In this document: piece after piece, positions 2,482-63,380 of the stretch | Position numbering within the stretch: the stretch's first letter is position 1 | How the letters are laid out: each line of letters begins with the position of its first letter | Assembly (NCBI GenBank): GCA_946498375.1 | Contig: CAMMOI010000001.1 | Location: 8,433 to 72,432 of the forward strand | Length of the DNA: 64,000 nucleotides | Direction: 5' to 3' | From: an uncultured Mycoplasmatota bacterium | Lineage (GTDB): Bacteria > Bacillota_I > Bacilli_A > RF39 > UBA660 | Position numbers and translations under genes: made by a program | Notes under the pieces: generated by a model | Database searches by the model: none | What the model was told of the DNA's origin: nothing | Seen by the model: the letters and a program-made list of their open reading frames with translations, nothing else

Positions 2482-2627
2482 TTTATTTAATATAACTATT
2501 TTTAATTAATTTCTTTTAAAAATACTTTCGCTGATTTTAATTATTTAATGTGATATAATATAGAAGAAGAAAAAGAAAGGGGTTAATAATCAAAATAGTA
2601 TTTTTAGTATGATTATATAAAGCAATT

Positions 2628-3497
2628 ATGATTTATGAAATAAAAGATAATAAAATATTATTAAGTAAACTAAAACAATTAAATTTAGAAAAATATAGTA
2701 ATCAACTTATTATTCTGACAAATAATGAATTTCAAAATGCTCATTTAAATTTAGAACAACCAATTAATAATTTTAAATATATAAAAATTGATGATTATAT
2801 GAATTATTTATTAGGAACTTTAATTATAAATAAGCAAAAAGATGTTTCTTTATATTTTTATATTATTAATAATAATATTATTTTTGTTGATGATTCTACC
2901 TTTACTAAAGATTTGATTGATGAAATTATAGAAAAATGTCAAAAACAAGGTTATGACATATATAAATTTTTAAAGGATTTTTTAGAAAAGATAATTGATA
3001 AAGATTTAGAAAACTTAGAAAAAATAAGTAGCAGTTTAGCACTTTTAGAAGAAACTATTTTAAAAAGTAATAAGGATGGAATTAATCATAGATTAATGAT
3101 AAAAAGAAAAGAAATTATAAAATTTTATCATTATTATTCTCAATTAATTGATTTTGGCTTAACTTTGCAAGAAAAAACAAATTCAACTTTATATTCAGTA
3201 TTTATTAAAAGAGTTGAAAGATTACAAAGTGAGACTATGTTATTAAGAGAATATACTCACCAATTACAAGAGTTATATAATTCAGAATTAAATAATCGAC
3301 AAAATGATATTATGAAAGTATTAACAATAGTTACGACTATTTTTTTACCATTAACTTTACTTACTAGTTGGTATGGAATGAATTTTAAATATATGCCGGA
3401 GATATCTTGGATTTTGGGATACCCTTTATTTATAATTTTATTTGCAATTACTTTTATTTTATGTTTAATAATATTTAAAATCAAAAAATTTTGGTAA
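2628..3497 (+). CDS. CorA-family divalent cation transporter
   Basis: C-terminal YGMNF (GMN motif) followed by two TM helices and a basic tail. Soluble N-terminal domain. Shorter (289 aa) than canonical CorA. Confidence 0.6.
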   Translation: MIYEIKDNKILLSKLKQLNLEKYSNQLIILTNNEFQNAHLNLEQPINNFKYIKIDDYMNYLLGTLIINKQKDVSLYFYIINNNIIFVDDSTFTKDLIDEIIEKCQKQGYDIYKFLKDFLEKIIDKDLENLEKISSSLALLEETILKSNKDGINHRLMIKRKEIIKFYHYYSQLIDFGLTLQEKTNSTLYSVFIKRVERLQSETMLLREYTHQLQELYNSELNNRQNDIMKVLTIVTTIFLPLTLLTSWYGMNFKYMPEISWILGYPLFIILFAITFILCLIIFKIKKFW

Positions 3498-3566
3498 GTA
3501 TATAAAAGTTTTTATCTAAAATTTACAAATTTTTAGGTTCATGATATACTTTCTAGGTGGTGAAAT

Positions 3567-4427
3567 ATGAAAATTGTAAAGGACTTTACGGAATATCAAA
3601 TTTTGGCGATGAGTAATTCAATGAAAGTGGAAAATTGGAATGGAATAATTTTAAAAAGACCTGATCCTCAAATTATTTGGAAAGATACAATGCCAAATGT
3701 TAAAATTGATGCAATTTATAATCGAAGTAATAAAGGTGGAGGAAGTTGGGATATTAAAAGTAAAAATATGCCAACTGTATGGCAAATACATTATAAAGAT
3801 TTAACTTTTAATTTAAAGTTAATGGGATTTAAACATACAGGGTTATTTCCAGAACAAGCTTATAATTGGAACTTAATTGAAGAAATTATAAAAAAAGCCA
3901 ATAGAGAAGTTAAAGTTTTAAATTTATTTGCTTATACGGGAGCAGCTTCTATTGCAGCTTTACATGCAGGTGCCAGTGTTGTACATGTTGATTCTTCCAA
4001 AGGAATGGTACAATGGGCAAAAGAAAATGTTTATTCCTCTCATTTAGAGAATCGACCAATTAGATTTATTGTTGATGATGTAGTAAAATTTGTTAAAAGA
4101 GAAATTAGAAGAAATCATAAATACGATATTATTTTAATGGATCCACCTTCTTTTGGTAGAGGGGCAAATAAAGAAGTTTGGAATTTAGAAAAAGATTTAT
4201 ATCCATTGGTAGAAGATTGTGTTAATTTATTAAGCGATAACCCTTTATTATTTATAATTAATTCATATACTACGGGATTATCTAAAAGTGTATTAGAAAA
4301 TATTCTTTATAAAACAGTTAATCAAAAAATAAAGGGCATAATTTCTAGTGATGAATTGGGAATCCAAATGAAGGATAGCAATTTAGTATTACCATGTGGT
4401 ATTTATGGAAGATGGGAAAGAAAATAG
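3567..4427 (+). CDS. class I SAM-dependent methyltransferase (RlmI/RlmK-like, no PUA domain)
   Basis: Motif I-like NLFAYTGAASIAA, acidic-loop VVHVDSS, and catalytic motif IV IILMDPPSFGRG typical of the RlmI/YccW family. GGTGGTGA SD upstream. Confidence 0.6.
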   Translation: MKIVKDFTEYQILAMSNSMKVENWNGIILKRPDPQIIWKDTMPNVKIDAIYNRSNKGGGSWDIKSKNMPTVWQIHYKDLTFNLKLMGFKHTGLFPEQAYNWNLIEEIIKKANREVKVLNLFAYTGAASIAALHAGASVVHVDSSKGMVQWAKENVYSSHLENRPIRFIVDDVVKFVKREIRRNHKYDIILMDPPSFGRGANKEVWNLEKDLYPLVEDCVNLLSDNPLLFIINSYTTGLSKSVLENILYKTVNQKIKGIISSDELGIQMKDSNLVLPCGIYGRWERK

Positions 4428-4484
4428 ATAGTTCTATTTCTTTTTTTATTACATATTATTAAATGTAAATACAAAGGAGGAATT

Positions 4485-4751
4485 ATGGAAATATTAAAAG
4501 TATCTACAAAATCAAATCCTAGCAAAGTAGCAGGAGCAATAGCGAATATTTATCGAGAAAAAAAGAGTGTCGAAATTCAAACTATTGGAGCTGGCTCTTT
4601 AAATCAAGCTATTAAAGCTATTTGTATTGCTAGAGGTTTTTTAGCTCCTGGTGGAGATGATATTGTAGTTATTCCATCATTTAATGATATTGTAATTGAT
4701 GGAGAAGCTAAAACTGCAATGAAATTATTAATTGAAAAAAAAGGTAATTAA
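4485..4751 (+). CDS. spoVS: stage V sporulation protein S
   Basis: 88 aa MEILKVSTKSNPSKVAGAIANI...IGAGSLNQAIKAICIARGF is nearly collinear with B. subtilis SpoVS. AAAGGAGG SD. Confidence 0.9.
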   Translation: MEILKVSTKSNPSKVAGAIANIYREKKSVEIQTIGAGSLNQAIKAICIARGFLAPGGDDIVVIPSFNDIVIDGEAKTAMKLLIEKKGN

Positions 4752-4796
4752 TAAATCCCTCATTAAATAATGGGGGATTTTCTTGTATTTAGTTTT

Positions 4797-5201
4797 TTAA
4801 GAAATTTTAGATAATAATACTAAAGCAATGGTTATGCCTGTGGCAAAAGTAGCAATTAAAATAGAGCTAATAGCTATAAAACCATTAGGGTTTGTATACT
4901 TATAAGCTGTACCACCTTCATCGCTTTGATAAGAATTTATACTAAATGCTTGAACATTTAACGTTTGTTTATAAAATTCTATAGTTCTTTTTTGGGCAGC
5001 ATTTAAAATTCCTGAATCTAATTGTTCTAAGTCACGACAAATTTTACGAAATTCTTGAAAAATAGCAAAACTTCCATCATTTAAATAAAATTGGTACTCA
5101 TTTAATTGCTGTTGATGTTTTAAATATGCTTCTAATTCTTCTGTAACTACACCTTTAGATAAAACTTCTTTAAATCTTTCATTTGATAAAACTTTTTTCA
5201 T
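4797..5201 (-). CDS. hypothetical protein, C-terminal TM anchor
   Basis: 134 aa ORF with a hydrophobic C-terminus (ISSILIATFATGITIALVLL). Its start overlaps the upstream ORF stop (ATGA), suggesting translational coupling. No recognisable family. Confidence 0.35.
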   Translation of the reverse strand: MKKVLSNERFKEVLSKGVVTEELEAYLKHQQQLNEYQFYLNDGSFAIFQEFRKICRDLEQLDSGILNAAQKRTIEFYKQTLNVQAFSINSYQSDEGGTAYKYTNPNGFIAISSILIATFATGITIALVLLSKIS

Positions 5202-5683: not shown

Positions 5684-6031
5684 TTGAATCAGGTAGTTTT
5701 GGTTGGAAGACTTACCAAAAATCCGGAAGTTACAGATTTAACGGATAATAAAAAAAGAACAACAATTACCCTTGCTGTAAATAGGCCCTTTAAAAATAGT
5801 GACGGTATCTATGAAACGGATTTTATTAAATGTATTTTATGGAATGGAATAGCTGCAAATACTAGCGAATTTTGCCATAAAGGGGACATTGTCGGAATTA
5901 AAGGCAGATTAGAAACTAATATTTATGAAGATACTGATAAAAGAAAAATATATAATATAGATGTAGTAGCAGAAAGAGTATCTTTTCTAGCAACTAATAA
6001 AAAAAATAATGAAAAAGAGACAGAAATTTAA
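5684..6031 (+). CDS. ssb: single-stranded DNA-binding protein (short SsbB-like form)
   Basis: OB-fold signature LNQVVLVGRLTKNPEV...ITLAVNRPFKN...TDFIKCILWNGIAAN. TTG at 5684 six nt after AGGAGGAGA. Product of about 116 aa lacks an acidic DDIPF-type C-terminal tail. Confidence 0.7.
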   Translation: MNQVVLVGRLTKNPEVTDLTDNKKRTTITLAVNRPFKNSDGIYETDFIKCILWNGIAANTSEFCHKGDIVGIKGRLETNIYEDTDKRKIYNIDVVAERVSFLATNKKNNEKETEI

Positions 6032-10061: not shown

Positions 10062-10913
10062 ATGATATTACCATTTAATGAGCAAGTTATTAATGATGGA
10101 ACAATTAATAAGGAATCATTTAAATATCCTAATTTTATTGGCTATTTAAATCCATTAGGAGACCCTATTGATTTTAAAGATAAATATGGATATATTGGTC
10201 ATGATTCAACTTTAAATATTCAAGAGTATTTTAGAATATTTTATAATTTGAAAATTAAAGATTATGCGGGAATAAGTCAGTTAGAAAAATATCGAATGAC
10301 AAAAAATTATTTGATTTCTGAGAAAAATAGAAATATTCAGCTTTTGAAGCAATTGTGCGCTAATTTAAAAGAAGAAATAAATAATTATAGTAAACTAGCT
10401 CCGGATATTGTCATAATTGATCGAATGGAATTGGATATTTATAAATTTTTGTTAAATTGTTATAGTGCCAATACTTTTTTTGATGGTGTAGGAAATATTG
10501 TAACTTGTATGTGCGAAAAAGAATTTTGGTACAAAGAATATAAAAATAAAAGATTATATGATATGGACCATAATGACTTTCAAACTGAATATAAAATTTA
10601 TAAAGATGATATTTTGGCTAATGCTTTTAAAGACGTTATGATTCAATATTTAGGTTATCATAGTATAGAAAGAATACCAAAAACTATTACTACGTCTTCT
10701 TTAGAAATATATGAGACATTTTATAATTATTTATTAAATGATTTTACTATTGTTCAACTGCCTAAGATGAATTATGATTTAAATAAAAGAAAATATATTA
10801 ACCAAAATTCTAATTGCTTTTTCTTATCTGATCATCAATTAAGATTAAAAGAAGAAATTCAAGCAATCAAAAAATATGTACCATTAGATCAAAGATCAAA
10901 ATATTATCGTTAG
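10062..10913 (+). CDS. hypothetical protein
   Basis: 283 aa, Tyr/Asn-rich, no recognisable motifs. GGAGATAA SD. Followed by a strong terminator. Confidence 0.4.
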   Translation: MILPFNEQVINDGTINKESFKYPNFIGYLNPLGDPIDFKDKYGYIGHDSTLNIQEYFRIFYNLKIKDYAGISQLEKYRMTKNYLISEKNRNIQLLKQLCANLKEEINNYSKLAPDIVIIDRMELDIYKFLLNCYSANTFFDGVGNIVTCMCEKEFWYKEYKNKRLYDMDHNDFQTEYKIYKDDILANAFKDVMIQYLGYHSIERIPKTITTSSLEIYETFYNYLLNDFTIVQLPKMNYDLNKRKYINQNSNCFFLSDHQLRLKEEIQAIKKYVPLDQRSKYYR

Positions 10914-10961
10914 ATAAATCATTTAAACTTTAAGATTTATATTAAATAATTAATTATATAA

Positions 10962-10996
10962 AAAACCTCGTTTTAAAATTTAAAAACGAGGTTTTT
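10962..10996. terminator. bidirectional intrinsic terminator
   Basis: Perfect 13-bp palindrome AAAACCTCGTTTT-AAAATTT-AAAACGAGGTTTT between convergent genes (10062..10913 + and clpB -). Confidence 0.75.
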
Positions 10997-10999
10997 GTT

Positions 11000-13120
11000 T
11001 TAATCTTTAATTATTAAGTTATTATTTTCTACATCAATTTTAATAGTTGAATTAAATTTTATTTTATCTAAAATAATATTTTTAGCAATTAAGGTTTCTA
11101 GATTACGTGAAACAAATCTTTTAATTGGTCGAGCGCCATATTTTTCATCGTAAGATGAATCAATAATAAAGTCTTTTGCCTTATCAGACAATTGTATTTT
11201 TAAGCGTTTATCTTTTAATCTGTTTTCAATATCACTAATAATTTTATCTAAAATATTATAAACAATATCTTTAGATAAAGAATTAAATATAATTATTTCA
11301 TCAATACGATTAATAAATTCTGGTTTAAAAGTATGTTGTAATTCTTCCATTACAAGTTTATTGGCATTTTCAGTATTTTCTAGAATATATTCGCTTCCTA
11401 AATTAGAAGTCATAATAATTATTGTGTTTTTAAAATCGACGGTGCGACCTTGAGAGTCAGTAATTCTACCATCATCCAATATTTGAAGCAATATATTAAA
11501 AACATCTTTATGAGCTTTTTCAATTTCATCAAAAAGAACTATTGAATAAGGATTTCGACGAATTGCCTCAGTAAGTTGACCTCCTTCATCATATCCTACA
11601 TATCCTGGAGGAGCACCAACTAATCTTGAAACACTGTGAGCTTCCATATATTCAGACATATCTATTCTAACCATATGACGTTCATCATCAAATAGTTCAT
11701 AGGCTAAACTACGGGCAACTTCAGTTTTACCAACTCCAGTAGGTCCTAAGAAAATAAATGAACCAATAGGGCGGTTAGGGTCTTTAATTCCACTACGGGC
11801 TCTAATAATAGCCTCGCTAATTAGTTTTAATGCTTGATCCTGACCCATAACCCTTTTTCTTAGATTATTTTCTAAGTTAATTAATTTTTCTTTTTCACCA
11901 CTAACTAGCTTACTAATTGGAATATTTGTCCATTTAGAAATTATTTTAGCTATGGATTCATCATCAACAACATCACTAAGTAATTTTGATTTAGAGTTAA
12001 ATTTTAAAGTTTCTAGTTCTTCTTGCAATTTAGGAATAATTCCGTGACGTAATTTTGCAGCAGCTTCTAGATCATAATTATTTTCAGCTATTTCTAATTT
12101 ATGCATAGCATTTTCTAATTCTTCTTTTTTGCGATTTATATTGTTACTAACTTCTTTTTCTTGATTCCATTGATCTCTAAGTTCTTTTTCTTTTTCTTGC
12201 AATTGAGAAATTTTAGTATCTAATTCTTTAACTCTTTCCTTAGAAATTTCATCCTTTTCACGTTTTAAAGCTTCACGTTCAATTTGTAGGCGCATAATTT
12301 GTTTGGTTAAGATATCCAAATTAACAGGAACGGATTCCATTTGTACTTTAATAGTAGCACACGCCTCATCAACTAAATCAATAGCCTTATCTGGTAAATA
12401 TCTATTTGTAATATATCTATCAGAAAGAGTAGCAGCAGCAACTAAAGCTTTATCTTTAATAGTTACACCATGATATACCTCAAAACGTGATTTCAAACCA
12501 CGTAAAATGGTAATAGTATCCTCAACATTAGGTTCCTGTACCAAGATTTTTTGAAATCTTCGCTCTAATGCACCGTCTTTTTCTATGTATTTACGATATT
12601 CATTTAAAGTAGTAGCACCTATACAATGAATTTCTCCACGGGCAAGCATAGGCTTTAACATATTTCCAGCATCCATTGCTCCTTCTAAAGCTCCAGCACC
12701 AACTATCATGTGTATTTCATCAATAAACATAATAATTTGGCCATCAGAGTTTTTAACCTCTTTTAATACCGCTTTTAATCTTTCTTCAAATTCGCCTCGA
12801 TATTTTGCACCAGCAATTAATGATCCCATATCTAATTCCCAAATCTTTTTATCTTTTAAACTATTTGGGACATCACCTTTGATAATTCTTTGGGCTAGGC
12901 CTTCAACAATAGCTGTTTTACCAACTCCTGGATCACCAATTAAAACTGGATTATTCTTAGTTTTACGGGATAAAATTCTTGTAATGTTTCTTATTTCTTC
13001 ATCACGACCAATAATTGGATCATTTTTCCCATCTATAACACTTTGAGTAATATCTCTACCATATTTCTCTAAGACATTTTCTAAATTTTCTTGATATTCT
13101 TTTGGGTTATTCATTATCAT
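11000..13120 (-). CDS. clpB: ATP-dependent chaperone ClpB lacking the N-terminal domain
   Basis: Two AAA+ modules ([33 protein letters not shown]), sensor motifs, and a ClpB-length coiled-coil M-domain of about 120 aa between them. The protein begins at the LEKYGRDIT segment that normally follows the about 150 aa N-domain. Confidence 0.85.
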
Positions 13121-13153
13121 TTCTCCTTTTCCAATTATAATTATATCACATTT

Positions 13154-13180
13154 TTAGCACTTGTCAATATAGAGTGCTAA
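13154..13180. promoter_or_regulatory. CIRCE operator (HrcA binding site)
   Basis: TTAGCACTT-GTCAATATA-GAGTGCTAA matches CIRCE consensus TTAGCACTC-N9-GAGTGCTAA at 17 of 18 positions. On the minus strand it overlaps TTGACA-N16-TATAAT directly upstream of clpB. Confidence 0.75.
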
Positions 13181-13197
13181 TTTTATGGTGTTAATAC

Positions 13198-13226
13198 TTG
13201 CGTATATTGCTAAAATATGCTATAAT
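13198..13226 (+). promoter_or_regulatory. sigma-A-type promoter TTGCGT-N17-TGcTATAAT (copy 1)
   Basis: -35 TTGCGT 13198-13203 and extended -10 at 13218-13226. Leader GGCTAGAAAAGAGGGATTAATATG is identical to the copy at 15297-15319. Confidence 0.5.
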
Positions 13227-13249
13227 CTGGCTAGAAAAGAGGGATTAAT

Positions 13250-14926
13250 ATGTTTGATGAGCTTTTTTACAAAAATCAAGACTTACTAAATAAGTTAAAT
13301 TGTAGTAACGAGCAAATTGAAGAGTGGAAATCATATTTAATACAGATGGCTGGTCTTTTAAAAACAGAGGCACAAACACCACCAATTTTAGTAGAGTATA
13401 CTGAACACATGTTTTTAAATTTTAAAAATATTCTAGAAAGAAAAGAATTAAAAGAAAAAATCAGTGATCTAATTTATGAACGAATGAACTGTAAAGATGA
13501 ACAAAAAAAGGCTGAAATAGAACAGCAGTTAAGTGATTTAGATCAAAAATCTAAAGTTGCTGAGCAACAAAAGATAGATATAAGACAGAAAAATACTTTA
13601 ATACTTAATAAATTTAATCAAGAAATAGCTACTTTGCCTAAAGAAAATCAAGTATCTTTTGAGCAAATAAATCAACAACTAGGTGCTCTTATTTCTAATA
13701 TTAATAATGGTATTAATAAAACTAAAGCACCCCAACCTGAGCCAAAAACAGAATTTAGTGCTGAGGAGTTACAAAAACTCTTAGAAGAGCAAAGAAAAGA
13801 AAACGAACGTTTAAAAAAAGAAAATAAAGATTTAAATGATCAGTTAAATGTAATGCAACAAAGTATGGAAGAATTAAAAAACCAATTAGAAGAACAAAGA
13901 AAATTACTTGAAGATATGAAAAATAATACTTTAGGAACTAAAGTAAAAAATGTTGGTAAAAAAGCTAAAAGAAAAGTAGTTCAAGTAAAAAAATGGGCTA
14001 AAGCAAATCCTAAAAAAACAGCAGCTATTATTGGAACAGTAGCCTTAGCTGGTTTAGTTGGATCTGCCGTTGCTTATGGGCATCCTCTAGCTTTTGCTGG
14101 AAGAGTAGTATCTGCAATGTGGAAACCACTTCATAATGTTGGCCTAGGCGAACCACTTCATAATATTAACCGATTCTTGTTTGGTAAAATTCGAGGAGCA
14201 ACCTTTGATAGTGGAAGAGGACTATGGTTATTAAATGGAACACCATTAAATGATTTAGGAGCATTTGAAACCATTCTTAATAATGTAGTAGGAATGGGTG
14301 CTGGATTAGCAGGCGGAGCAGCAATTGGTTATGGAGCATATAAAGTAGCAAAAAAGGCCAAAAATGCCTGGTTAAATAGAGCCGAAGATGGCTTTATTAA
14401 TAAAATGACTAATAAAATTAAATCATTAGGTGGCAATGTAAAAGCATTTGGGGGAAAAATTAAAAGTAAATTAACTAATATTTTTAAGAAAAAGAAAAAA
14501 ACAAAAGATGATTTTGATGTTATGTCTATGGAAGTAGATCAAGAATTAATTGAAGATTGCTTAGGAGATATTAAAGATGCTACTGTTGATGATTTAATTT
14601 ATTTTCAAAATGATATGATATCTATTGGTAGTTATGTTCAAGAAAATCATGCTTTACCTGATGATATAGAGTATCCATTAACTTTAGGAACTATTGTTGA
14701 AATATGTTCATTATTAGATGATGCATTACAGAAAAAATTTGATGAACATATAGAAAATATGTCTAAAGAAGAATTAGAAAATTTAGCACAAGAATTAGAA
14801 GAAAAATTTCAAAACGAAGCAAATAACAATATAAATTACTTTGATTCTAAATATGGTATCAAATTAAGTGCTGCAATCAATAAGGTAAGCGCTAAAATGC
14901 AAGAACAAACAATGGGAGGAAGATAA
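13250..14926 (+). CDS. paralog 1 of duplicated coiled-coil / glycine-zipper protein, unknown function
   Basis: 558 aa. N-terminal about 230 aa heptad-rich coiled coil with a PQPEPK linker. Lys-rich segment (KNVGKKAKRKVVQVKKWAKANPKK), then about 110 aa Gly/Ala-rich hydrophobic core (AIIGTVALAGLVGSAV...VVGMGAGLAGGAAIGYGAY), a second Lys-rich segment, and a conserved C-terminal ENMSKEELENLAQELEEKFQNEANNNI region. Confidence 0.5.
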   Translation: MFDELFYKNQDLLNKLNCSNEQIEEWKSYLIQMAGLLKTEAQTPPILVEYTEHMFLNFKNILERKELKEKISDLIYERMNCKDEQKKAEIEQQLSDLDQKSKVAEQQKIDIRQKNTLILNKFNQEIATLPKENQVSFEQINQQLGALISNINNGINKTKAPQPEPKTEFSAEELQKLLEEQRKENERLKKENKDLNDQLNVMQQSMEELKNQLEEQRKLLEDMKNNTLGTKVKNVGKKAKRKVVQVKKWAKANPKKTAAIIGTVALAGLVGSAVAYGHPLAFAGRVVSAMWKPLHNVGLGEPLHNINRFLFGKIRGATFDSGRGLWLLNGTPLNDLGAFETILNNVVGMGAGLAGGAAIGYGAYKVAKKAKNAWLNRAEDGFINKMTNKIKSLGGNVKAFGGKIKSKLTNIFKKKKKTKDDFDVMSMEVDQELIEDCLGDIKDATVDDLIYFQNDMISIGSYVQENHALPDDIEYPLTLGTIVEICSLLDDALQKKFDEHIENMSKEELENLAQELEEKFQNEANNNINYFDSKYGIKLSAAINKVSAKMQEQTMGGR

Positions 14927-15207
14927 TGACTAAAGGTGATATAATAACTTTAGAAGATAATGAACAATTTCTTTTATTAATGGAAAATGAAATAGAGGGC
15001 AGAAAATTCTTTTATGCAAACAAAGTAGACAATGAGGAAAATACAACTAGCGAATATGAAATTTTTGAACAATTAACTGAAGATGGCGATAATTATTTAG
15101 AAATTGTTGAGGATGAAGATGAAAGAGAATTTTTAACAAATGTATTTAGTGCTGATTTAGTTGAGTTTGCCTCTGATGTGGAAAGTGGAAAGATTACATT
15201 CGAATAA
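14926..15207 (+). CDS. DUF1292-family small acidic protein
   Basis: 93 aa. ITLEDNEQFLLLMENEIEGRKFFYANKV...YLEIVEDEDEREFLTNVF fits the DUF1292/YrzB pattern. ATG overlaps the upstream stop (TAATG), suggesting translational coupling. Confidence 0.6.
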   Translation: MTKGDIITLEDNEQFLLLMENEIEGRKFFYANKVDNEENTTSEYEIFEQLTEDGDNYLEIVEDEDEREFLTNVFSADLVEFASDVESGKITFE

Positions 15208-15319: not shown

Positions 15320-16984
15320 GTGATTGATGAGCTTTTTGACAAATATCAAGATTTGCTAAACAGATTAAATTGTAGTAACGAGCAAATTAAAGACTGGAAA
15401 CAAATTTTAACAAAAATGTCTGACTTTTTAAAATCTGAATCAGAAAAAGTAAGTGCTGTTGTAATAGAATATGCTGAGCAAATTTTTTTGAGTTTTGAAA
15501 ATATTTTAGAAAAAGAAAAGTTAAAAGAAAAAAAGAATATTTTAATTAATGAACGCGATAATTGTAAAGATGAAGAAAAAAAGTCTGAAATAGAAAAGCA
15601 ATTAAGTGATTTGGAACAAAAATTTAAAATCATTGAGCAACAAAGAGTAGAACTACGTCAAAAAAATAATATAGTATTTAATAAATTTAATCAACAAATT
15701 AATACTTTATCTGAAAAAGATCAAAATGCTTTTGATAAAGTAAACCAACAGTTAGGTAAATTAATTACTAATGTTAATGCTGGTATTGATAAGCCAAAAA
15801 CACCACAGCCTGAGCCCAAAGTAGAGCTTAGTGCTGAGGAGTTACAAAAACTCTTAGAACAGCAAAGACAAGAAAATGAACGTTTGAAAAAGGAAAATCA
15901 AAATTTAAAAAATCAGTTAAATATAATGCAACAAAGTATAGAAGAATTAAAAAAGCAATTAGAAGATCAGAAAAAATTTCTTGAAGAAATGAAAAATAAT
16001 ACTTTAGGAACTAAAGTAAAAAATGTTGGTAAAAAAGCGAAAAGAAAAGTAGTTCAAGTAAAAAAATGGGCCAAAGCAAATCCTAAAAAAACAGTAGCTA
16101 TTATTGGAACAGTAGCCTTAGCTGGTTTAGTTGGATCTGCCGTTATTTACGGACATCCTCTATCTTTTGCTGGAAGAGTAGTTTCGGCTTTGTGGAAACC
16201 ACTTCATAATGTAGGCCTAGGAAAACCACTTCATAATATTAACCGATTCTTATTTGGTAAAATTAGAGGAGCAACCTTTGATAGTGGAAGAGGACTATGG
16301 TTATTAAATGGAACACCATTAAATGATTTAGGAGCATTTGAAACCATTCTTAATAATGTAGTAGGAATGGGTGCTGGATTAGCAGGTCTTTCTGCGGTTG
16401 GTTATGGAGCATATAAAGTAGCAAAAAAGGCTAAAAATGCTTGGTTAAATAGAGCTGAAGATGGCTTTATTAATAAAATGACTAATAAAATCAAATCATT
16501 AAGGGGAACTTTAAAAAATAAGCTTACAAATAGATTTAAAAGAAAAAAAGATTTAATTGAAGATTATGATATTATGAGTCCGGTTGTAGATGCAACTTTA
16601 ATTGATGAAATTTTGCCCGATTTAGAAACTATAAGTATAGAAGAATTGATATATTTACAAAAATATATAAGTGAAGTTAATATATATATTTATAATAATC
16701 ACAAATTACCTGAGGATATTAATGTTCCATTAAATTTAGGGACTATAGAAGAAATTTTAAAAATAATAGACAAGGAGTTACAAATTAGATTTGATGAGTA
16801 TATAGAAAATATGTCTAAAGAAGAATTAGAAAATTTAGCAAAAGAATTAGAAGAAAAATTCCAAAATGAAGCAAATAATAATATTGATTATTTTGATCCT
16901 AAATATGGTATAAAATTAAGTGTAGCAATTAACAAAGTTAGTGCTAAGATTCAAGAGCATATAATTGTGACAAAAAAGATTTAA
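15320..16984 (+). CDS. paralog 2 of duplicated coiled-coil / glycine-zipper protein (GTG start)
   Basis: 554 aa, collinear with 13250..14926. The Gly-zipper core and C-terminal 60 aa are near-identical even at nucleotide level; the coiled-coil and the region before the C-terminus are diverged. Starts at GTG in the position of the copy-1 ATG. Confidence 0.5.
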   Translation: MIDELFDKYQDLLNRLNCSNEQIKDWKQILTKMSDFLKSESEKVSAVVIEYAEQIFLSFENILEKEKLKEKKNILINERDNCKDEEKKSEIEKQLSDLEQKFKIIEQQRVELRQKNNIVFNKFNQQINTLSEKDQNAFDKVNQQLGKLITNVNAGIDKPKTPQPEPKVELSAEELQKLLEQQRQENERLKKENQNLKNQLNIMQQSIEELKKQLEDQKKFLEEMKNNTLGTKVKNVGKKAKRKVVQVKKWAKANPKKTVAIIGTVALAGLVGSAVIYGHPLSFAGRVVSALWKPLHNVGLGKPLHNINRFLFGKIRGATFDSGRGLWLLNGTPLNDLGAFETILNNVVGMGAGLAGLSAVGYGAYKVAKKAKNAWLNRAEDGFINKMTNKIKSLRGTLKNKLTNRFKRKKDLIEDYDIMSPVVDATLIDEILPDLETISIEELIYLQKYISEVNIYIYNNHKLPEDINVPLNLGTIEEILKIIDKELQIRFDEYIENMSKEELENLAKELEEKFQNEANNNIDYFDPKYGIKLSVAINKVSAKIQEHIIVTKKI

Positions 16985-25057: not shown

Positions 25058-25768
25058 TTAATTTGAATATTTTAGACGATACTGTACAGGTGACAAGTAT
25101 CCAAGATTCTTTTGAATACGTTCATTATTATACCAGTGAACGTATTTTTTTATTTCTTCAGTAGCTTGTTTTCTAGTTAATTTACTAAATTGACAAAGCC
25201 ATTCGTGTTTTAATTGCATAAACCAGTTTTCAATTGGACAATTTTCCCAACAGTGTCCTCTATGTGACATACTTCTAGTAAATCCCATAGTTTCTGCAAG
25301 TTCAACATATTCATATGCAAAATATACTGCACCTTGATCTGTATTAACTATTGCATTTTCATTTATTTTTAAATCTTTATAACTTTCTTTTATTAATTCT
25401 ACATCATTGTTATTTGACGTAAAACGTGATACAATTTCTTTATTGAAGTAATCTTTAATAGCTGATAAATATAGTGTACCATCACTACATTTTATATAGC
25501 TAACATCAGAAGAAAACTTTTGACCTGGTTTTTCTGATTTAAAGTTACATTCAATTAGGTATTGAGCCTTATTTGTAAGGTTCTTTTCTTTTGCTCTAGA
25601 AACAGACAATCCCTTTTTAGTTCTTTTAATTGTTTCTAATCTCAATATGTTTTTATATCTTCTAATCAATTTGTGATTTAAAACTAATTTTAATTTAATT
25701 TCTATATGTTTTTTTAATCTTATTGTTCCATAAATCCCTTTAACATTTTTATGCTCCTCTGATATCAC
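25058..25768 (-). CDS. IS3-family transposase OrfB (DDE integrase core)
   Basis: HRGHCWENCPIENWFMQLKHEWL and YVHWYNNERIQKNLGYLSPVQY are C-terminal IS3 transposase signatures. The reading frame remains open upstream to the slippery site near 25960. Confidence 0.8.
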   Translation of the reverse strand: MISEEHKNVKGIYGTIRLKKHIEIKLKLVLNHKLIRRYKNILRLETIKRTKKGLSVSRAKEKNLTNKAQYLIECNFKSEKPGQKFSSDVSYIKCSDGTLYLSAIKDYFNKEIVSRFTSNNNDVELIKESYKDLKINENAIVNTDQGAVYFAYEYVELAETMGFTRSMSHRGHCWENCPIENWFMQLKHEWLCQFSKLTRKQATEEIKKYVHWYNNERIQKNLGYLSPVQYRLKYSN

Positions 25769-29314: not shown

Positions 29315-29391
29315 GGGCGATTAGCTCAGTTGGTTAGAGCACCTGCCTTACAAGCAGGGGGTCGTAGGTTCGAGTCCTACATCGCCCACCA
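29315..29391 (+). tRNA. tRNA-Val (anticodon TAC)
   Basis: Cloverleaf with acceptor GGGCGAT/ATCGCCC, anticodon loop CTTACAA, T-loop GGTTCGAGTCC, encoded CCA. Confidence 0.9.
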
Positions 29392-29399
29392 TTTTTTTT

Positions 29400-29475
29400 G
29401 CCGACATAGCGTAACTGGCAGCGCAACTGACTTGTAATCAGTAGGTTGGGGGTTCGACTCCCTCTGTCGGCACCA
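29400..29475 (+). tRNA. tRNA-Thr (anticodon TGT)
   Basis: Acceptor GCCGACA/TGTCGGC, anticodon stem ACTGA/TCAGT with loop CTTGTAA, GGTTCGACTCC T-arm, encoded CCA. Confidence 0.85.
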
Positions 29476-29482
29476 TTCTTAT

Positions 29483-29566
29483 GGAGGGATAGCGAAGTGG
29501 TCAAACGCGGCAGACTGTAAATCTGTTCCTTCGGGTTCCATGGTTCAAATCCATGTCCCTCCACCA
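29483..29566 (+). tRNA. tRNA-Tyr (anticodon GTA)
   Basis: Acceptor GGAGGGA/TCCCTCC, anticodon loop CTGTAAA, long variable arm, GGTTCAAATCC T-arm, encoded CCA. Confidence 0.85.
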
Positions 29567-29573
29567 CTTAAAT

Positions 29574-29649
29574 TGCCTCGTAGCCAAGTGGTAAGGCATC
29601 AGACTTTGACTCTGACATTCCGATGGTTCGAATCCATCCGAGGCAGCCA
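29574..29649 (+). tRNA. tRNA-Gln (anticodon TTG)
   Basis: Acceptor TGCCTCG/CGAGGCA, anticodon loop CTTTGAC, GGTTCGAATCC T-arm, encoded CCA. Confidence 0.85.
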
Positions 29650-29657
29650 TATATTAT

Positions 29658-29733
29658 GTCCTGTTAGCTCAGTAGGTAGAGCATCTGACTTTTAATCAGA
29701 GGGTCTGGGATTCGAGTTCCCAACAGGACACCA
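29658..29733 (+). tRNA. tRNA-Lys (anticodon TTT)
   Basis: Acceptor GTCCTGT/ACAGGAC, anticodon loop CTTTTAA, GATTCGAGTTC T-arm, encoded CCA. Confidence 0.85.
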
Positions 29734-30524: not shown

Positions 30525-30601
30525 GCGCCCATAGCTCAATTGGATAGAGCGTTTGACTACGGATCAAAAGGTTAGGGGTTCGACTCCCTTTGGGCGCACC
30601 A
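30525..30601 (+). tRNA. tRNA-Arg (anticodon ACG)
   Basis: Acceptor GCGCCCA/TGGGCGC, anticodon stem TTTGA/TCAAA with loop CTACGGA, GGTTCGACTCC T-arm, encoded CCA. Confidence 0.85.
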
Positions 30602-30608
30602 TTATTAC

Positions 30609-30685
30609 CGAGAAGTAGCACAGTTTGGTAGTGCACTTGGTTTGGGACCAAGGGGTCGCAGGTTCGAATCCTGTCTTCTCGACCA
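30609..30685 (+). tRNA. tRNA-Pro (anticodon TGG)
   Basis: Acceptor CGAGAAG/CTTCTCG, anticodon stem CTTGG/CCAAG with loop TTTGGGA, GGTTCGAATCC T-arm, encoded CCA. Confidence 0.85.
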
Positions 30686-30813: not shown

Positions 30814-31590
30814 ATGAGTAAATATAAAGTAGATATAACAGGAATTAATACAAGTCAATTAAAAGTGTTGACTCAAGATCAACAAAAGGATTTATTTGAA
30901 AAATTAAAAAATGGTGATCAATCAGCAAAAGTTAAAATAGCAGAAGGTAATTTAAAATTAGTATTAAGTATTTTAAAAAGATACGCTAATCAAAAATATA
31001 ATATGGATGATTTATTTCAAGTTGGTTGTATAGGACTTATGAAAGCTATTGATAATTTTGATACTAATTATGGAGTTATGTTTTCAACTTATGCAGTTCC
31101 TTTAATTTTAGGAGAAGTTAAAAGGTATGTTAGAGATAATACATCTATTCGTGTAAGTAGAAGTACCAGAGATTTAGCATATAAGATTATAAAATACAAA
31201 GATGAATATGTTACTTTAAATGGAAGCACTCCTAGTAGTGAGCAAATTGCTAAAGCTTTGGATGTTGAAGAATATGAAATATCGAATGCTTTAGATTCCC
31301 TAAAGGATCCTATGAGTATTTTTGAACCCATTTATAATGATGGTGGAGATACTATTTATTTATTAGACCAAATTGCTGATAAAAAAGAAAAAAGTCAAGA
31401 TAAAGATATGTTAATTTCTCTAAGAAAGGCATTAAGCCAAATTAAACAAAGAGAAAAAGAGGTATTATTAAGTCGTTATATTATAGGCAAAACCCAAATG
31501 GAAATAGCACAATCTTTAGATATCTCCCAAGCTCAAGTTTCTAGAATCGAAAAAAATGCAATTAGTAATATAAAGCGGTTAATTAAATAA
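30814..31590 (+). CDS. sigG: RNA polymerase sporulation sigma factor SigG (forespore-specific)
   Basis: Collinear with B. subtilis SigG: N-terminal MSKYKVDITGINTSQLKVL, GNLKLVLSILKRY, DLFQVGCIGLMKAIDNFD, IRVSRSTRDLAYK, and C-terminal GKTQMEIAQSLDISQAQVSRIEK. AAGGAGGA SD. Confidence 0.85.
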   Translation: MSKYKVDITGINTSQLKVLTQDQQKDLFEKLKNGDQSAKVKIAEGNLKLVLSILKRYANQKYNMDDLFQVGCIGLMKAIDNFDTNYGVMFSTYAVPLILGEVKRYVRDNTSIRVSRSTRDLAYKIIKYKDEYVTLNGSTPSSEQIAKALDVEEYEISNALDSLKDPMSIFEPIYNDGGDTIYLLDQIADKKEKSQDKDMLISLRKALSQIKQREKEVLLSRYIIGKTQMEIAQSLDISQAQVSRIEKNAISNIKRLIK

Positions 31591-61551: not shown

Positions 61552-62502
61552 TTATTCAACATTTTTTAAAACTAAACTATCAATTTGTTCATTATTTACA
61601 ATAAAATTAACTTCTGTGATGTCTAAATTATCTTTTAGAGATAATAAAATTGTGTATTTAACTTCTTCTAATATATTTTTTTTATCTAAATCATCAAATA
61701 AATATTCATTAAAACTTAAATTAATACTGTTTTCTATTATTTCATAGTCTTGAAGCTCAGCATTTGCTTTTAAATAACTCATAAGATTAGTTTGATAAAC
61801 AGGAGTACTTTTTAATTCATCAATAATAATTTCAACTTTATTACTTTGATTATTATCAATTTTAGTTATAGGGACATAATAGTATAAATCATTATATTTG
61901 CTTACATAATAGATTGTTGTTTGAGTAGTATTTTTAAAACTTTCTAAATCATAAGTTTTGTTTACTCCTATAGAACGATTTAAAACTTGAGGTAATGCTT
62001 TTTTAGAATTGGGTAATTCATTTAATATTTGACCATCTACAAATATCATAACATTATTAATATCTTTAATTGAAGTAAGGGAATAAACAATAGATTCTAT
62101 TAATTTTTCTTCATTTTTACGACTTATATTTAAAAATTCTTTAGAAAAATCTATTTTTAACAATCCATCTTTTAAATCTATACTATTTATTTTAGTATTT
62201 TTGGGAATTATTGCTTTAAATCCATTTGGTATATATTGACTTTTATTATTATCAATGGTTAATGTTTGGATTAATTCTTGAGCAAGTTTTAAACTATCAG
62301 TATTAGTAGTAGGAACATTAGTCATGGCAACATAATTATTTTCATCTAATAAAAATATATTACTAATGTTTGCATTAGCATTATAATTTTTAGTTATTTC
62401 ATAAGATGAACTATCTTTTGTAGGAAATAAATATAAGATTCCTATAATTAGTAGAGCACAAGTAGCTATAGTTATTCTTCTAAATGAAGCTTTTTTTAGC
62501 AT
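61552..62502 (-). CDS. gerM: GerM-like spore germination lipoprotein (tandem GerMN domains)
   Basis: Lipobox-like IATCALLIIG. Two repeated modules with L.I..NN...Y..NGF..I and DG.L..DFS/V..D...L patterns typical of GerMN. Start at ATG 62502 after AGGTGA. Confidence 0.5.
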   Translation of the reverse strand: MLKKASFRRITIATCALLIIGILYLFPTKDSSSYEITKNYNANANISNIFLLDENNYVAMTNVPTTNTDSLKLAQELIQTLTIDNNKSQYIPNGFKAIIPKNTKINSIDLKDGLLKIDFSKEFLNISRKNEEKLIESIVYSLTSIKDINNVMIFVDGQILNELPNSKKALPQVLNRSIGVNKTYDLESFKNTTQTTIYYVSKYNDLYYYVPITKIDNNQSNKVEIIIDELKSTPVYQTNLMSYLKANAELQDYEIIENSINLSFNEYLFDDLDKKNILEEVKYTILLSLKDNLDITEVNFIVNNEQIDSLVLKNVE

Positions 62503-62575
62503 AAGAATCACCTAATTAATTTTATTCTATTAAATAAAAATAATTCAAAAAAAGCCATAATTTGGCTTTTGAATT

Positions 62576-62782
62576 TTATATTGTAATTTCACCTAATTTT
62601 AAAAGTTCTACTACTGCATGAGCGCGTCCTTTTACACCGAGTTTTTGCATAGCATTAGAAATATGATTACGCACAGTTTTTTCGCTTATACCTAAGAAAT
62701 TTGCAATCTCTTGTGTAGATTTATTAAGAACTAAAAGATCAAATACTTCTTTTTCTCTAGTGGTAAGAATGCTTTTTTTCAT
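62576..62782 (-). CDS. gerE: LuxR-family spore-coat regulator GerE
   Basis: 68 aa LTTREKEVFDLLVLNKSTQEIANFLGISEKTVRNHISNAMQKLGVKGRAHAVVELLKLGEI is nearly identical in pattern to B. subtilis GerE. Confidence 0.85.
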   Translation of the reverse strand: MKKSILTTREKEVFDLLVLNKSTQEIANFLGISEKTVRNHISNAMQKLGVKGRAHAVVELLKLGEITI

Positions 62783-62819
62783 GATTAGACCTCACTTCCT
62801 TCATATTCTACATCCATTT

Positions 62820-62828
62820 TATTGTATG
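62820..62828 (-). promoter_or_regulatory. candidate sigma-K-type -10 element (CATACAATA) upstream of gerE
   Basis: Minus-strand CATACAATA fits sigma-K -10 consensus CATA-N3-TA about 40 nt upstream of the gerE ATG. No clear -35 assessed. Confidence 0.25.
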
Positions 62829-62873
62829 ATATTCTATTTTAGAAAGTGAAAGCTAAAGCCTAGAGATGATTAA

Positions 62874-63380
62874 CTAGCTTTGAAATTTAACAGTAATAAA
62901 CATACGGGTGTCAAAATTATTTTGAACAGTTCTAATAATTTTATTGGCAAGTTGTTCATCATGTTCTTTGTTAGAAATAACTACTTGAACTTGATCTTCT
63001 TTTATTTTAACAAAACTTTTTAATTTATGCTCATCTAAAATTGCTTGTTCAACAGTCTCTTCTTTGCCTTTATTTTGATTTAATTCTTTTAAAGCTTCGT
63101 AAGCATCATTTTTTTCCTCAACACTTGCTTCTTCATTTAAAAGAATTTCTTGATAAGTGGCCATTTCTTGAGTAGTTTGTTCATCCGCATCTACTCTTAA
63201 AGCAGTTAATACATCACTTTGTTCAACTTCAATTGTTTGGGTATCATTACTCTTAGAAGTATTAATTGTCTGTAGTGCTTCCTCTGGCATGGTTAAATAA
63301 TAAATACTTAAAACTAAAATTAAACTAAAAAGAGTTAAAAACCATAAATTTTGCTTATTAATCAATGCTAACACCTCCAT
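62874..63380 (-). CDS. spoIIIAH: stage III sporulation protein AH (SpoIIIAH)
   Basis: N-terminal TM NLWFLTLFSLILVLSIYYLTMPEE and C-terminal ...KEHDEQLANKIIRTVQNNFDTRMFITVKFQS parallel B. subtilis SpoIIIAH (VWLLTMLSLVVVLSVYYIMSPE ... VAVTFEP). The rest of spoIIIA is expected beyond the window edge. Confidence 0.6.
   Translation of the reverse strand: MEVLALINKQNLWFLTLFSLILVLSIYYLTMPEEALQTINTSKSNDTQTIEVEQSDVLTALRVDADEQTTQEMATYQEILLNEEASVEEKNDAYEALKELNQNKGKEETVEQAILDEHKLKSFVKIKEDQVQVVISNKEHDEQLANKIIRTVQNNFDTRMFITVKFQS

Follow-up and report, generated by a model that had tools for sequence, protein, structure and literature searches.

A clpB gene for a ClpB without N-terminal domain, preceded by a predicted CIRCE operator, in an apparently Mollicutes-related bacterium

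Introduction

In several Mollicutes the clpB gene is controlled by the repressor HrcA through its operator, the inverted repeat that controls the expression of chaperones (CIRCE), which lies in the clpB promoter region. This arrangement is documented for Mycoplasma pneumoniae (gene MPN531; PMC7737663), for Spiroplasma melliferum and Mycoplasma gallisepticum (PMC5138195) and for Mycoplasma feriruminatoris, where the CIRCE consensus is TTAGCACTT-N9-AAGTGCTAA and where a CIRCE also lies upstream of the Pribnow box in the lon promoter (PMC12597100); Mycoplasma genitalium belongs to the same set. A model in which HrcA activity is titrated by GroEL goes back to Mogk et al. (1997), as cited in PMC7737663, and an HrcA model is also given in PMC12597100. 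Here we describe a clpB gene in a 64-kb stretch of contig CAMMOI010000001.1 (the window, meaning the whole stretch that was analysed), which likewise carries a CIRCE in its promoter region and which encodes a ClpB that lacks the N-terminal domain (N domain). The gene is likely to form a single-gene heat-shock unit under the predicted control of HrcA, inherited within a Mollicutes-related clade.

The nearest described systems outside the Mollicutes each share part of this design. In Escherichia coli, the short isoform ClpB80 is translated from an internal GTG start at Val149, practically the same site in the linker between the N domain and nucleotide-binding domain 1 (NBD1) at which the protein described here begins, and in both NBD1, the M domain and NBD2 are kept. 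The E. coli short form coexists with full-length ClpB95 from one gene, whereas here the short form is the sole possible product. The protein described here is the natural counterpart of ClpB80. ClpB without its N domain keeps its core disaggregase activity but differs in the substrates it prefers and is stimulated less strongly by casein. The Bacillus subtilis operons hrcA-grpE-dnaK-dnaJ and groESL have the 9-N9-9 repeat, and presumably a GroEL-titrated repressor, in common with this locus. Their CIRCE sits between the transcription start and the ribosome-binding site (RBS) and is transcribed, whereas the one described here overlaps the -35 box, is untranscribed and has clpB as its target, a gene that B. 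subtilis is not known to have. The clpB genes of Listeria, Staphylococcus and lactic acid bacteria are equal in function and in the logic of heat-shock repression, but they are controlled by CtsR, and in place of CIRCE they carry a heptad in direct repeat, RGTCAAA-N3-RGTCAAA.

The locus was singled out by a reading of the DNA letters (the sequence-only reading), which proposed a ClpB without N domain under a near-perfect CIRCE in a spore-forming host, regarded this combination as unusual, and explained it either by affinity with the Mollicutes branch or by regulatory rewiring.

Results

The clpB product is a ClpB without N domain

The clpB open reading frame (ORF) opens with ATG-ATA-ATG and encodes 706 amino acids from the ATG at 13120 or 704 from the ATG at 13114 (Table 1). 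The second ATG is the likelier start because it is better spaced from the GGAG of the Shine–Dalgarno sequence and is the choice of the gene caller for an identical database protein of 704 amino acids. The product is ~150 amino acids below the usual ClpB length of 855–880. It contains Pfam matches to AAA, AAA_lid_9, AAA_2 and ClpB_D2-small, and Clp_N (PF02861) has no match in it. When searched with phmmer against the PDB, residues 8–702 align in a single stretch with residues 144–844 of Thermus thermophilus ClpB (E 1e-268), and residues 11–703 align, also in a single stretch, with residues 155–854 of E. coli ClpB and with positions 13–712 of chain 4CIU, an E. coli ClpB of 727 residues. The N domain is thus absent, as the sequence-only reading had proposed. 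It had also placed the start of the ORF at the segment LEKYGRDIT; this segment is present, preceded by 16 leader residues.

A hidden Markov model (HMM) of the domain, built from the N-terminal 130–160 residues of 73 full-length ClpBs, returned nothing from any of the six reading frames of the window, where the best hit had E 0.13 and fell in a coiled-coil protein, and no N-domain-like sequence from the six frames of seven related short-clpB loci. It readily recovers the domain in the clpB of Staphylococcus caprae and in a frameshifted clpB (L037). In the latter locus, from an Opitutia metagenome-assembled genome (MAG), the N domain lies at 2508–3434 in a different frame from the remainder of the gene (match from 3001), through a frameshift or a sequencing error.

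That such a frameshifted clpB exists, and that the protein is ~150 residues shorter than usual, could be taken to mean that the short clpB is a pseudogene left by truncation, an artefact of assembly or one half of a split gene with a separate N domain. This is exceedingly improbable, as the promoter, CIRCE and RBS stand directly before the short ORF, a stop codon supplied by the right arm of CIRCE (TAA, 13156..13154) closes the reading frame 12 codons ahead of the ATG, neither the window nor the related loci hold a separate N domain, more than 200 independent database proteins share the short length, and the catalytic motifs are all intact. The loss of the N domain is genuine and the gene is not split.

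The remainder of the protein is complete. The Walker A motifs GDPGVGKT and GPTGVGKT are present, and reading of the translation finds the Walker motifs of both AAA+ modules and both pore loops intact, including GAPPGYVGY with its tyrosine. The ClpB-type M domain is also complete, the gap-free alignment to T. thermophilus ClpB spanning residues 400–530. ClpC, ClpE, ClpA and the 701-residue chain 6LSY, which we take to be pneumococcal ClpL, align as two separate stretches only and with lower scores. The possibility that the protein is another Hsp100 poor in N domain, such as ClpL (~700 amino acids), ClpC or ClpE, draws on the similar size and on the reference list of PMC7053576, which points to ClpL as a potential HrcA target in Lactobacillus gasseri. 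It is nevertheless very unlikely: the ClpB alignment is uninterrupted and takes in the whole M domain, its 897 bits compare with 518–703 bits for ClpC, ClpE and 6LSY, the top NCBIfam model is the ClpB equivalog (model positions 148–852 of 853, 1121 bits), and no ClpP-docking tripeptide [ILV]G[FL] was read in the translation between TSNLG and FKPEF of NBD2. Judged by the full-length M domain and the one-stretch alignment, the product is a ClpB rather than a ClpL or ClpC. Since the N domain is dispensable for the core disaggregase activity, according to work on ΔN ClpB and ClpB80, the absent Clp_N makes this a variant ClpB architecture and not a non-member of the ClpB/Hsp104 family. An altered DnaK interface, considered on account of a histidine at the position of E. 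coli Tyr503 in M-domain motif 2, was rejected, as histidine is found there in 23 of 84 sampled ClpBs, full-length ones included.

Downstream, a bidirectional stem–loop terminator separates clpB from a convergent ORF (10062–10913), and clpB is therefore monocistronic.

The CIRCE element encloses the -35 box of the clpB promoter

The consensus used for CIRCE was the 9-bp inverted repeat TTAGCACTC-N9-GAGTGCTAA. On the gene strand, the 27-nt element upstream of clpB (13180..13154) reads TTAGCACTC-TATATTGAC-AAGTGCTAA, and the order of elements up to the gene is TTAGCACTC TATATTGAC AAGTGCTAA AAATGTGA TATAAT ... GGAGAA ATG. With up to three mismatches allowed, no other match occurs in the window, against an expectation of 0.01. 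No further CIRCE was found in ~17 kb of flanking sequence from the same organism beyond the window ends, which makes it the only one in ~80 kb.

A promoter scan identifies TTGACA-N16-TATAAT as a sigma-A promoter with all 12 of 12 consensus positions and a TG extension, the only 12/12 site in the region. The -35 hexamer is formed from the last five bases of the CIRCE spacer and the first base of its right arm, in agreement with the operator–promoter overlap that had been proposed from a 17/18 match to CIRCE. Because the element lies upstream of the -10 box it is not contained in the clpB mRNA, and it should act only as a DNA operator. In this position it resembles the CIRCE of M. feriruminatoris lon, and AAGTGCTAA is, despite its mismatch, the right arm of the consensus in that species (PMC12597100). 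The CtsR consensus RGTCAAANANRGTCAAA has no match at two or fewer mismatches in the window, including the 129-bp clpB intergenic region, and thus no CtsR box had been overlooked. Service of the CIRCE to the divergent gene at 13250 was also considered and rejected, as the element stays with clpB in relatives that have other upstream neighbours.

The promoter module is conserved in front of short clpB genes

The module of CIRCE, -35, -10 and RBS was found upstream of short clpB in nine further loci (L081–L085, L001, L002, L004 and L023), which represent seven distinct relatives, since L081/L082 and L083/L084 are near-identical pairs. Its design is TTAGCACTC, 4–5 bases, TTGACA(A)GTGCTAA, ~12 bases, TATAAT, RBS and ATG. 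The module is kept even though the flanking genes differ by lineage and include a tRNA, diacylglycerol kinase, histidyl-tRNA synthetase and resolvase, among others. In a MAFFT alignment the invariant columns cluster in both CIRCE arms, the embedded TTGAC, part of the -10, one G of the RBS and the ATG. Locus L085 carries a variant at 5935–5961, TTGGCACTC-N9-AAGTGCCAA, in which a mirror-image substitution in both arms keeps the palindrome.

A second CIRCE of the same design lies ~115 nt upstream of an hsp20 gene in L081–L084. In L081 it is found at 13219–13245, with two mismatches and with TTGACA embedded on the gene strand, and the hsp20 gene at 12684–13103 (-). At the corresponding place in the window, which follows the peptidyl-prolyl isomerase gene and precedes the next gene, hsp20 is absent. 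The conserved module, the symmetric change in L085 and the CIRCE of hsp20 together provide good comparative evidence, which indicates that the operator is functional and that a CIRCE regulon is live in this lineage.

Short ClpB is standard in several Mollicutes-related lineages

The best 120 database homologues of the window ClpB are 699–707 amino acids in length and 81–100% identical, and none contains PF02861. A further sample consisted of 80 genomes with ClpB from a scan of a genome collection, with a best identity of 77% among the matches listed. Short ClpBs in this sample occur in genomes labelled ‘uncultured Bacilli’ (L001), ‘uncultured Tenericutes’ (L002) and ‘Muribaculaceae’ (L004), in Izemoplasmatales (L023) and in Planococcus maritimus (L026); the ‘Muribaculaceae’ label is probably a labelling or binning error. 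In a tree built by neighbour joining from the 693 columns that the sequences share, the window ClpB forms one clade with L081, L083, L085, L004, L002 and L001. Its sister group contains the short Izemoplasmatales protein and the full-length ‘Bacilli’ protein L072.

The best 120 relatives of the Izemoplasmatales ClpB are 660–724 amino acids long and bear names that include Candidatus Izemoplasma sp. B36, Acholeplasma sp. and Tenericutes/Mycoplasmatota. Those of the full-length L072 protein are all 842–882 amino acids with Clp_N, and their labels are exclusively ‘Bacilli’ and ‘Bacillales’ MAGs, with none that names Erysipelotrichales. ClpB measures 714 amino acids in M. genitalium and 715 in M. 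pneumoniae. A literature search returned no text stating outright that ClpB of Mollicutes is without N domain; it is from these lengths, together with the database lengths for Izemoplasma, Acholeplasma and Mycoplasmatota, that the protein is taken to be short there (~700–715 amino acids, from a monocistronic or nearly monocistronic gene, as in the window). Short ClpB is standard across several Mollicutes-related lineages.

Operators of clpB in other groups

Among the 80 listed genomes, 17 have a CIRCE with at most two mismatches in front of a full-length clpB (Table 1), and most of these are Lachnospiraceae, Oscillospiraceae and Christensenellaceae. A common form in these is TTAGCACTC-N5/6-TTGACAGTGCTAA, in which the operator incorporates the -35 box, and when matches with up to three mismatches are counted TTGAC is embedded in the CIRCE of 15 out of 23 CIRCE-bearing clpB promoters. 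These clostridial genes thus have the same operator as the window, often with the same TTGACA fusion, but their products keep the N domain and measure 854–900 amino acids. L072 has the placement seen in B. subtilis, its clpB CIRCE lying between the transcription start and the RBS. No description of CIRCE-preceded full-length clpB in Clostridia was found in a literature search. The sequence-only reading had presented CIRCE-controlled clpB as the arrangement known from Mollicutes. It is documented there (PMC5138195, PMC7737663, PMC12597100), but it is not confined to them and is common in largely spore-forming groups of Clostridia.

The accompanying proposal, that clpB of Bacillus-type Bacilli is under CtsR, is supported by this sample: CtsR boxes lie upstream of clpB in S. 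caprae, two Lactobacillales MAGs, Anoxybacillus, Planococcus and L079. The short ClpB of P. maritimus (~2920–5140, 711 amino acids, TTG start) lies behind TATAAT-N6-AGTCAAAGATGGTCAAA, a perfect CtsR box, and no N-domain sequence was found within 3 kb of its gene. The loss of the domain in Planococcus is an independent event in Bacillales under CtsR. Long ClpB and short ClpB are therefore each found both with CIRCE and with CtsR, and the tie between N-domain loss and HrcA control that had been implied is not supported.

The host organism

The window has a GC content of 25.6%. Read with the standard genetic code it is ~86% coding; TGG codons number 120, and TGA stops are few. Its sporulation genes encode GPR (158 bits; cut-off 120), SpoIIP (156 bits; cut-off 123), a SigF/SigG-type sigma factor, GerM and SpoIIIAH, and SpoVS, a GerE-like gene and YabP were called in the contigs that match the window ends (L086, L089). 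FemAB and VanY represent cell-wall functions. From this gene content a spore former is a reasonable reading, in line with the sequence-only reading, and the organism is walled. In these peptidoglycan and sporulation genes the host differs from the Mollicutes with HrcA-controlled clpB, as it does in its standard genetic code and in the canonical -35 fused into CIRCE.

Close relatives, named ‘Bacilli bacterium’ only, assemble into contigs of 1.0–1.2 Mb; if these are near-complete, they would be among the smallest genomes of spore formers. No rRNA genes were found in the window. The orders RFN20, RF39 and ML615J-28 have been grouped with Mycoplasmatales, Acholeplasmatales, Izemoplasmatales and Erysipelotrichales (PMC10868615), a group of small genomes in which walled sporulating species stand beside wall-less, non-sporulating ones (PMC10868615). 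The ClpB tree, the ‘Bacilli’ and ‘Tenericutes’ labels, the low GC content, the contigs of the relatives and a mix of phenotypes that matches this description all point, indirectly, in the same direction, and the host, a gut bacterium, appears to belong to the Mollicutes-related Bacilli, its exact place among them being an inferred one.

Relatives with an 86%-identical ClpB share local synteny with the window, comprising genes for a coiled-coil protein, a 93-residue ORF, a UvrD-like helicase, a phosphoesterase, an Rce1-like protein, thioredoxin, VanY and a peptidyl-prolyl isomerase. Divergent from clpB are two tandem paralogues of 558 and 554 amino acids, 71% identical (13250–14926 and 15320–16984, both (+)). 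Each has a coiled-coil N-terminal half and a conserved hydrophobic core rich in Gly and Ala, and neither gave a significant match in Pfam or NCBIfam. Between them lies the 93-residue ORF (14926–15207, (+)) with a sub-threshold match to DUF1292. At the same position L081–84 have one copy of the paralogue (583 amino acids, 45% identical over the core) and the 93-residue ORF. Elsewhere in the window, a 236-residue ORF (25058–25768, (-)) looks by eye like the catalytic portion of a transposase of the IS3 family (rve type) and is possibly truncated. Two (+)-strand tRNA clusters, Val-Thr-Tyr-Gln-Lys (29315–29733) and Arg-Pro (30525–30685), flank a gene for a thioredoxin-like membrane protein, and the gene for the SigG-like sigma factor follows closely downstream of them.

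Table 1. Positions of the clpB gene, its predicted control elements and other features. Positions refer to the window unless a locus is named.
Feature	Position or locus	Strand	Basis or details
clpB coding sequence, N-domain-less ClpB	11000..13120	(-)	ORF translation, Pfam, phmmer against PDB, NCBIfam
Shine–Dalgarno GGAG	13123..13126	(-)	2 nt before ATG 13120, 8 nt before ATG 13114
Extended -10 TGaTATAAT	13140..13148	(-)	hexamer TATAAT 13145..13140, TG extension, promoter scan
-35 hexamer TTGACA	13162..13167	(-)	inside CIRCE
CIRCE inverted repeat TTAGCACTC-N9-AAGTGCTAA, predicted HrcA operator	13154..13180	(-)	17/18 match
Bidirectional stem–loop terminator	10961..10996	(.)	14-pair stem between A and T runs
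Sporulation-type genes	365–2155, 30814–31590, 61552–63380; L086 5521–5787; L089 534–770		
Full-length clpB with CIRCE (two or fewer mismatches)	L003, L007, L012, L014, L020, L024, L028, L029, L032, L033, L041, L052, L063, L065, L072, L075, L077		

Discussion

The arrangement of the locus suggests how the unit may work. A strong sigma-A promoter would drive a monocistronic clpB, and its -35 box is built into the CIRCE palindrome. At normal temperature an HrcA dimer on CIRCE would block access of sigma region 4 to the -35 box, so that clpB stays silent. Once GroEL is titrated by unfolded proteins, or HrcA itself is inactivated by heat, the operator would be vacated and clpB would be transcribed. 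Hexamers of the short ClpB would then work with DnaK, DnaJ and GrpE via the intact M domain, and aggregates would be threaded through the conserved pore loops without N-domain-assisted capture of the substrate. The binding of HrcA, the heat induction and the disaggregase activity are all predicted properties of the unit. Both the short ClpB and the CIRCE/-35 promoter would have been inherited in small-genome, AT-rich Bacilli akin to Izemoplasmatales, Acholeplasmatales and Mycoplasmatales.

Several observations count against this proposal. The score of 1121 bits for the NCBIfam ClpB equivalog is below its cut-off of 1232 bits, presumably because ~147 model positions are absent. The ClpB tree is a single-gene, neighbour-joining tree with no support values, and the MAG labels are coarse. 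The right arm of CIRCE has one mismatch, G to A, at a position where the embedded TTGACA forces an A. No hrcA was found in the window or in the 8–10 kb beyond each end (L086, L089), ~80 kb in total, whereas in M. feriruminatoris hrcA adjoins clpB; nor was it found in the flanks of short clpB in L001, L002, L004 and L023, where the genes are unrelated. The presence of HrcA in the host genome is presumed from its near-universality in Firmicutes and Mollicutes (PMC5138195). The mismatch and the missing hrcA, as well as the degenerating CIRCE copies of Spiroplasma (PMC5138195), would also fit a palindrome that is a relic or a product of chance, with clpB expressed constitutively or under another factor. 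We consider this decidedly unlikely. A chance match is hardly to be expected in a window of this size and a CtsR box is lacking, the arms are invariant amid diverged surroundings and in one lineage have changed by a symmetric double substitution, and functional CIRCEs of mycoplasmas tolerate up to two mismatches (PMC5138195).

On comparison of these loci, the short ClpB and its CIRCE/-35 promoter appear to be inherited traits of the clade and not the result of a local truncation or a recent rewiring. The alternative is that a sporulating host of Bacillus or Clostridium type acquired a Mollicutes-type clpB cassette by rewiring or horizontal transfer, for which the compact monocistronic unit, its different neighbourhood in every lineage and the inconsistent labels of the nearest MAGs could be cited. 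It is an unlikely one, given that synteny around clpB is shared with the relatives at 86% ClpB identity, that the composition of clpB fits the AT-rich genome, and that vertically related, walled and sporulating orders are documented among the relatives of Mollicutes (PMC10868615). The walled sporulating members described there also remove the apparent conflict between sporulation and a Mollicutes-type trait. Between the two explanations offered by the sequence-only reading, the clade beside Izemoplasmatales favours affinity with the Mollicutes branch, and with a module inherited throughout the clade rewiring is unneeded. Its view of the combination as unusual was overstated, since this is normal for a Mollicutes-related lineage. 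Its suggested scan for other CIRCE copies added none in the window or its flanks.

It is possible, if on balance doubtful, that short ClpB and the -35-in-CIRCE promoter are ancestral to the whole Mollicutes-related clade and were fixed while the ancestors were still walled and sporulating. If this were true, HrcA would have taken over the Clp branch of the heat-shock response, and CtsR would perhaps have been lost, before genome minimization and not as a result of it, and the sporulating lineage described here would be a living intermediate in which the order of events could be tested.

Neither the loss of the N domain nor a CIRCE in front of clpB is by itself fit as a taxonomic marker, in view of the clostridial CIRCEs and the independent loss under CtsR in Planococcus. 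Perhaps the more useful observation is that CIRCE before clpB, often with the -35 box built in, is widespread in Clostridia. The locus also offers a natural ClpB of ΔN type only, in an organism where the setting for proteostasis is fuller. The importance of the finding is modest: two traits usually associated with wall-less mycoplasmas, a ClpB in short form only and a clpB with HrcA/CIRCE, are present in a relative that has a cell wall and a small genome and apparently forms spores, and this is of use in working out the sequence of steps by which evolution was reductive in the Mollicutes-related Bacilli.

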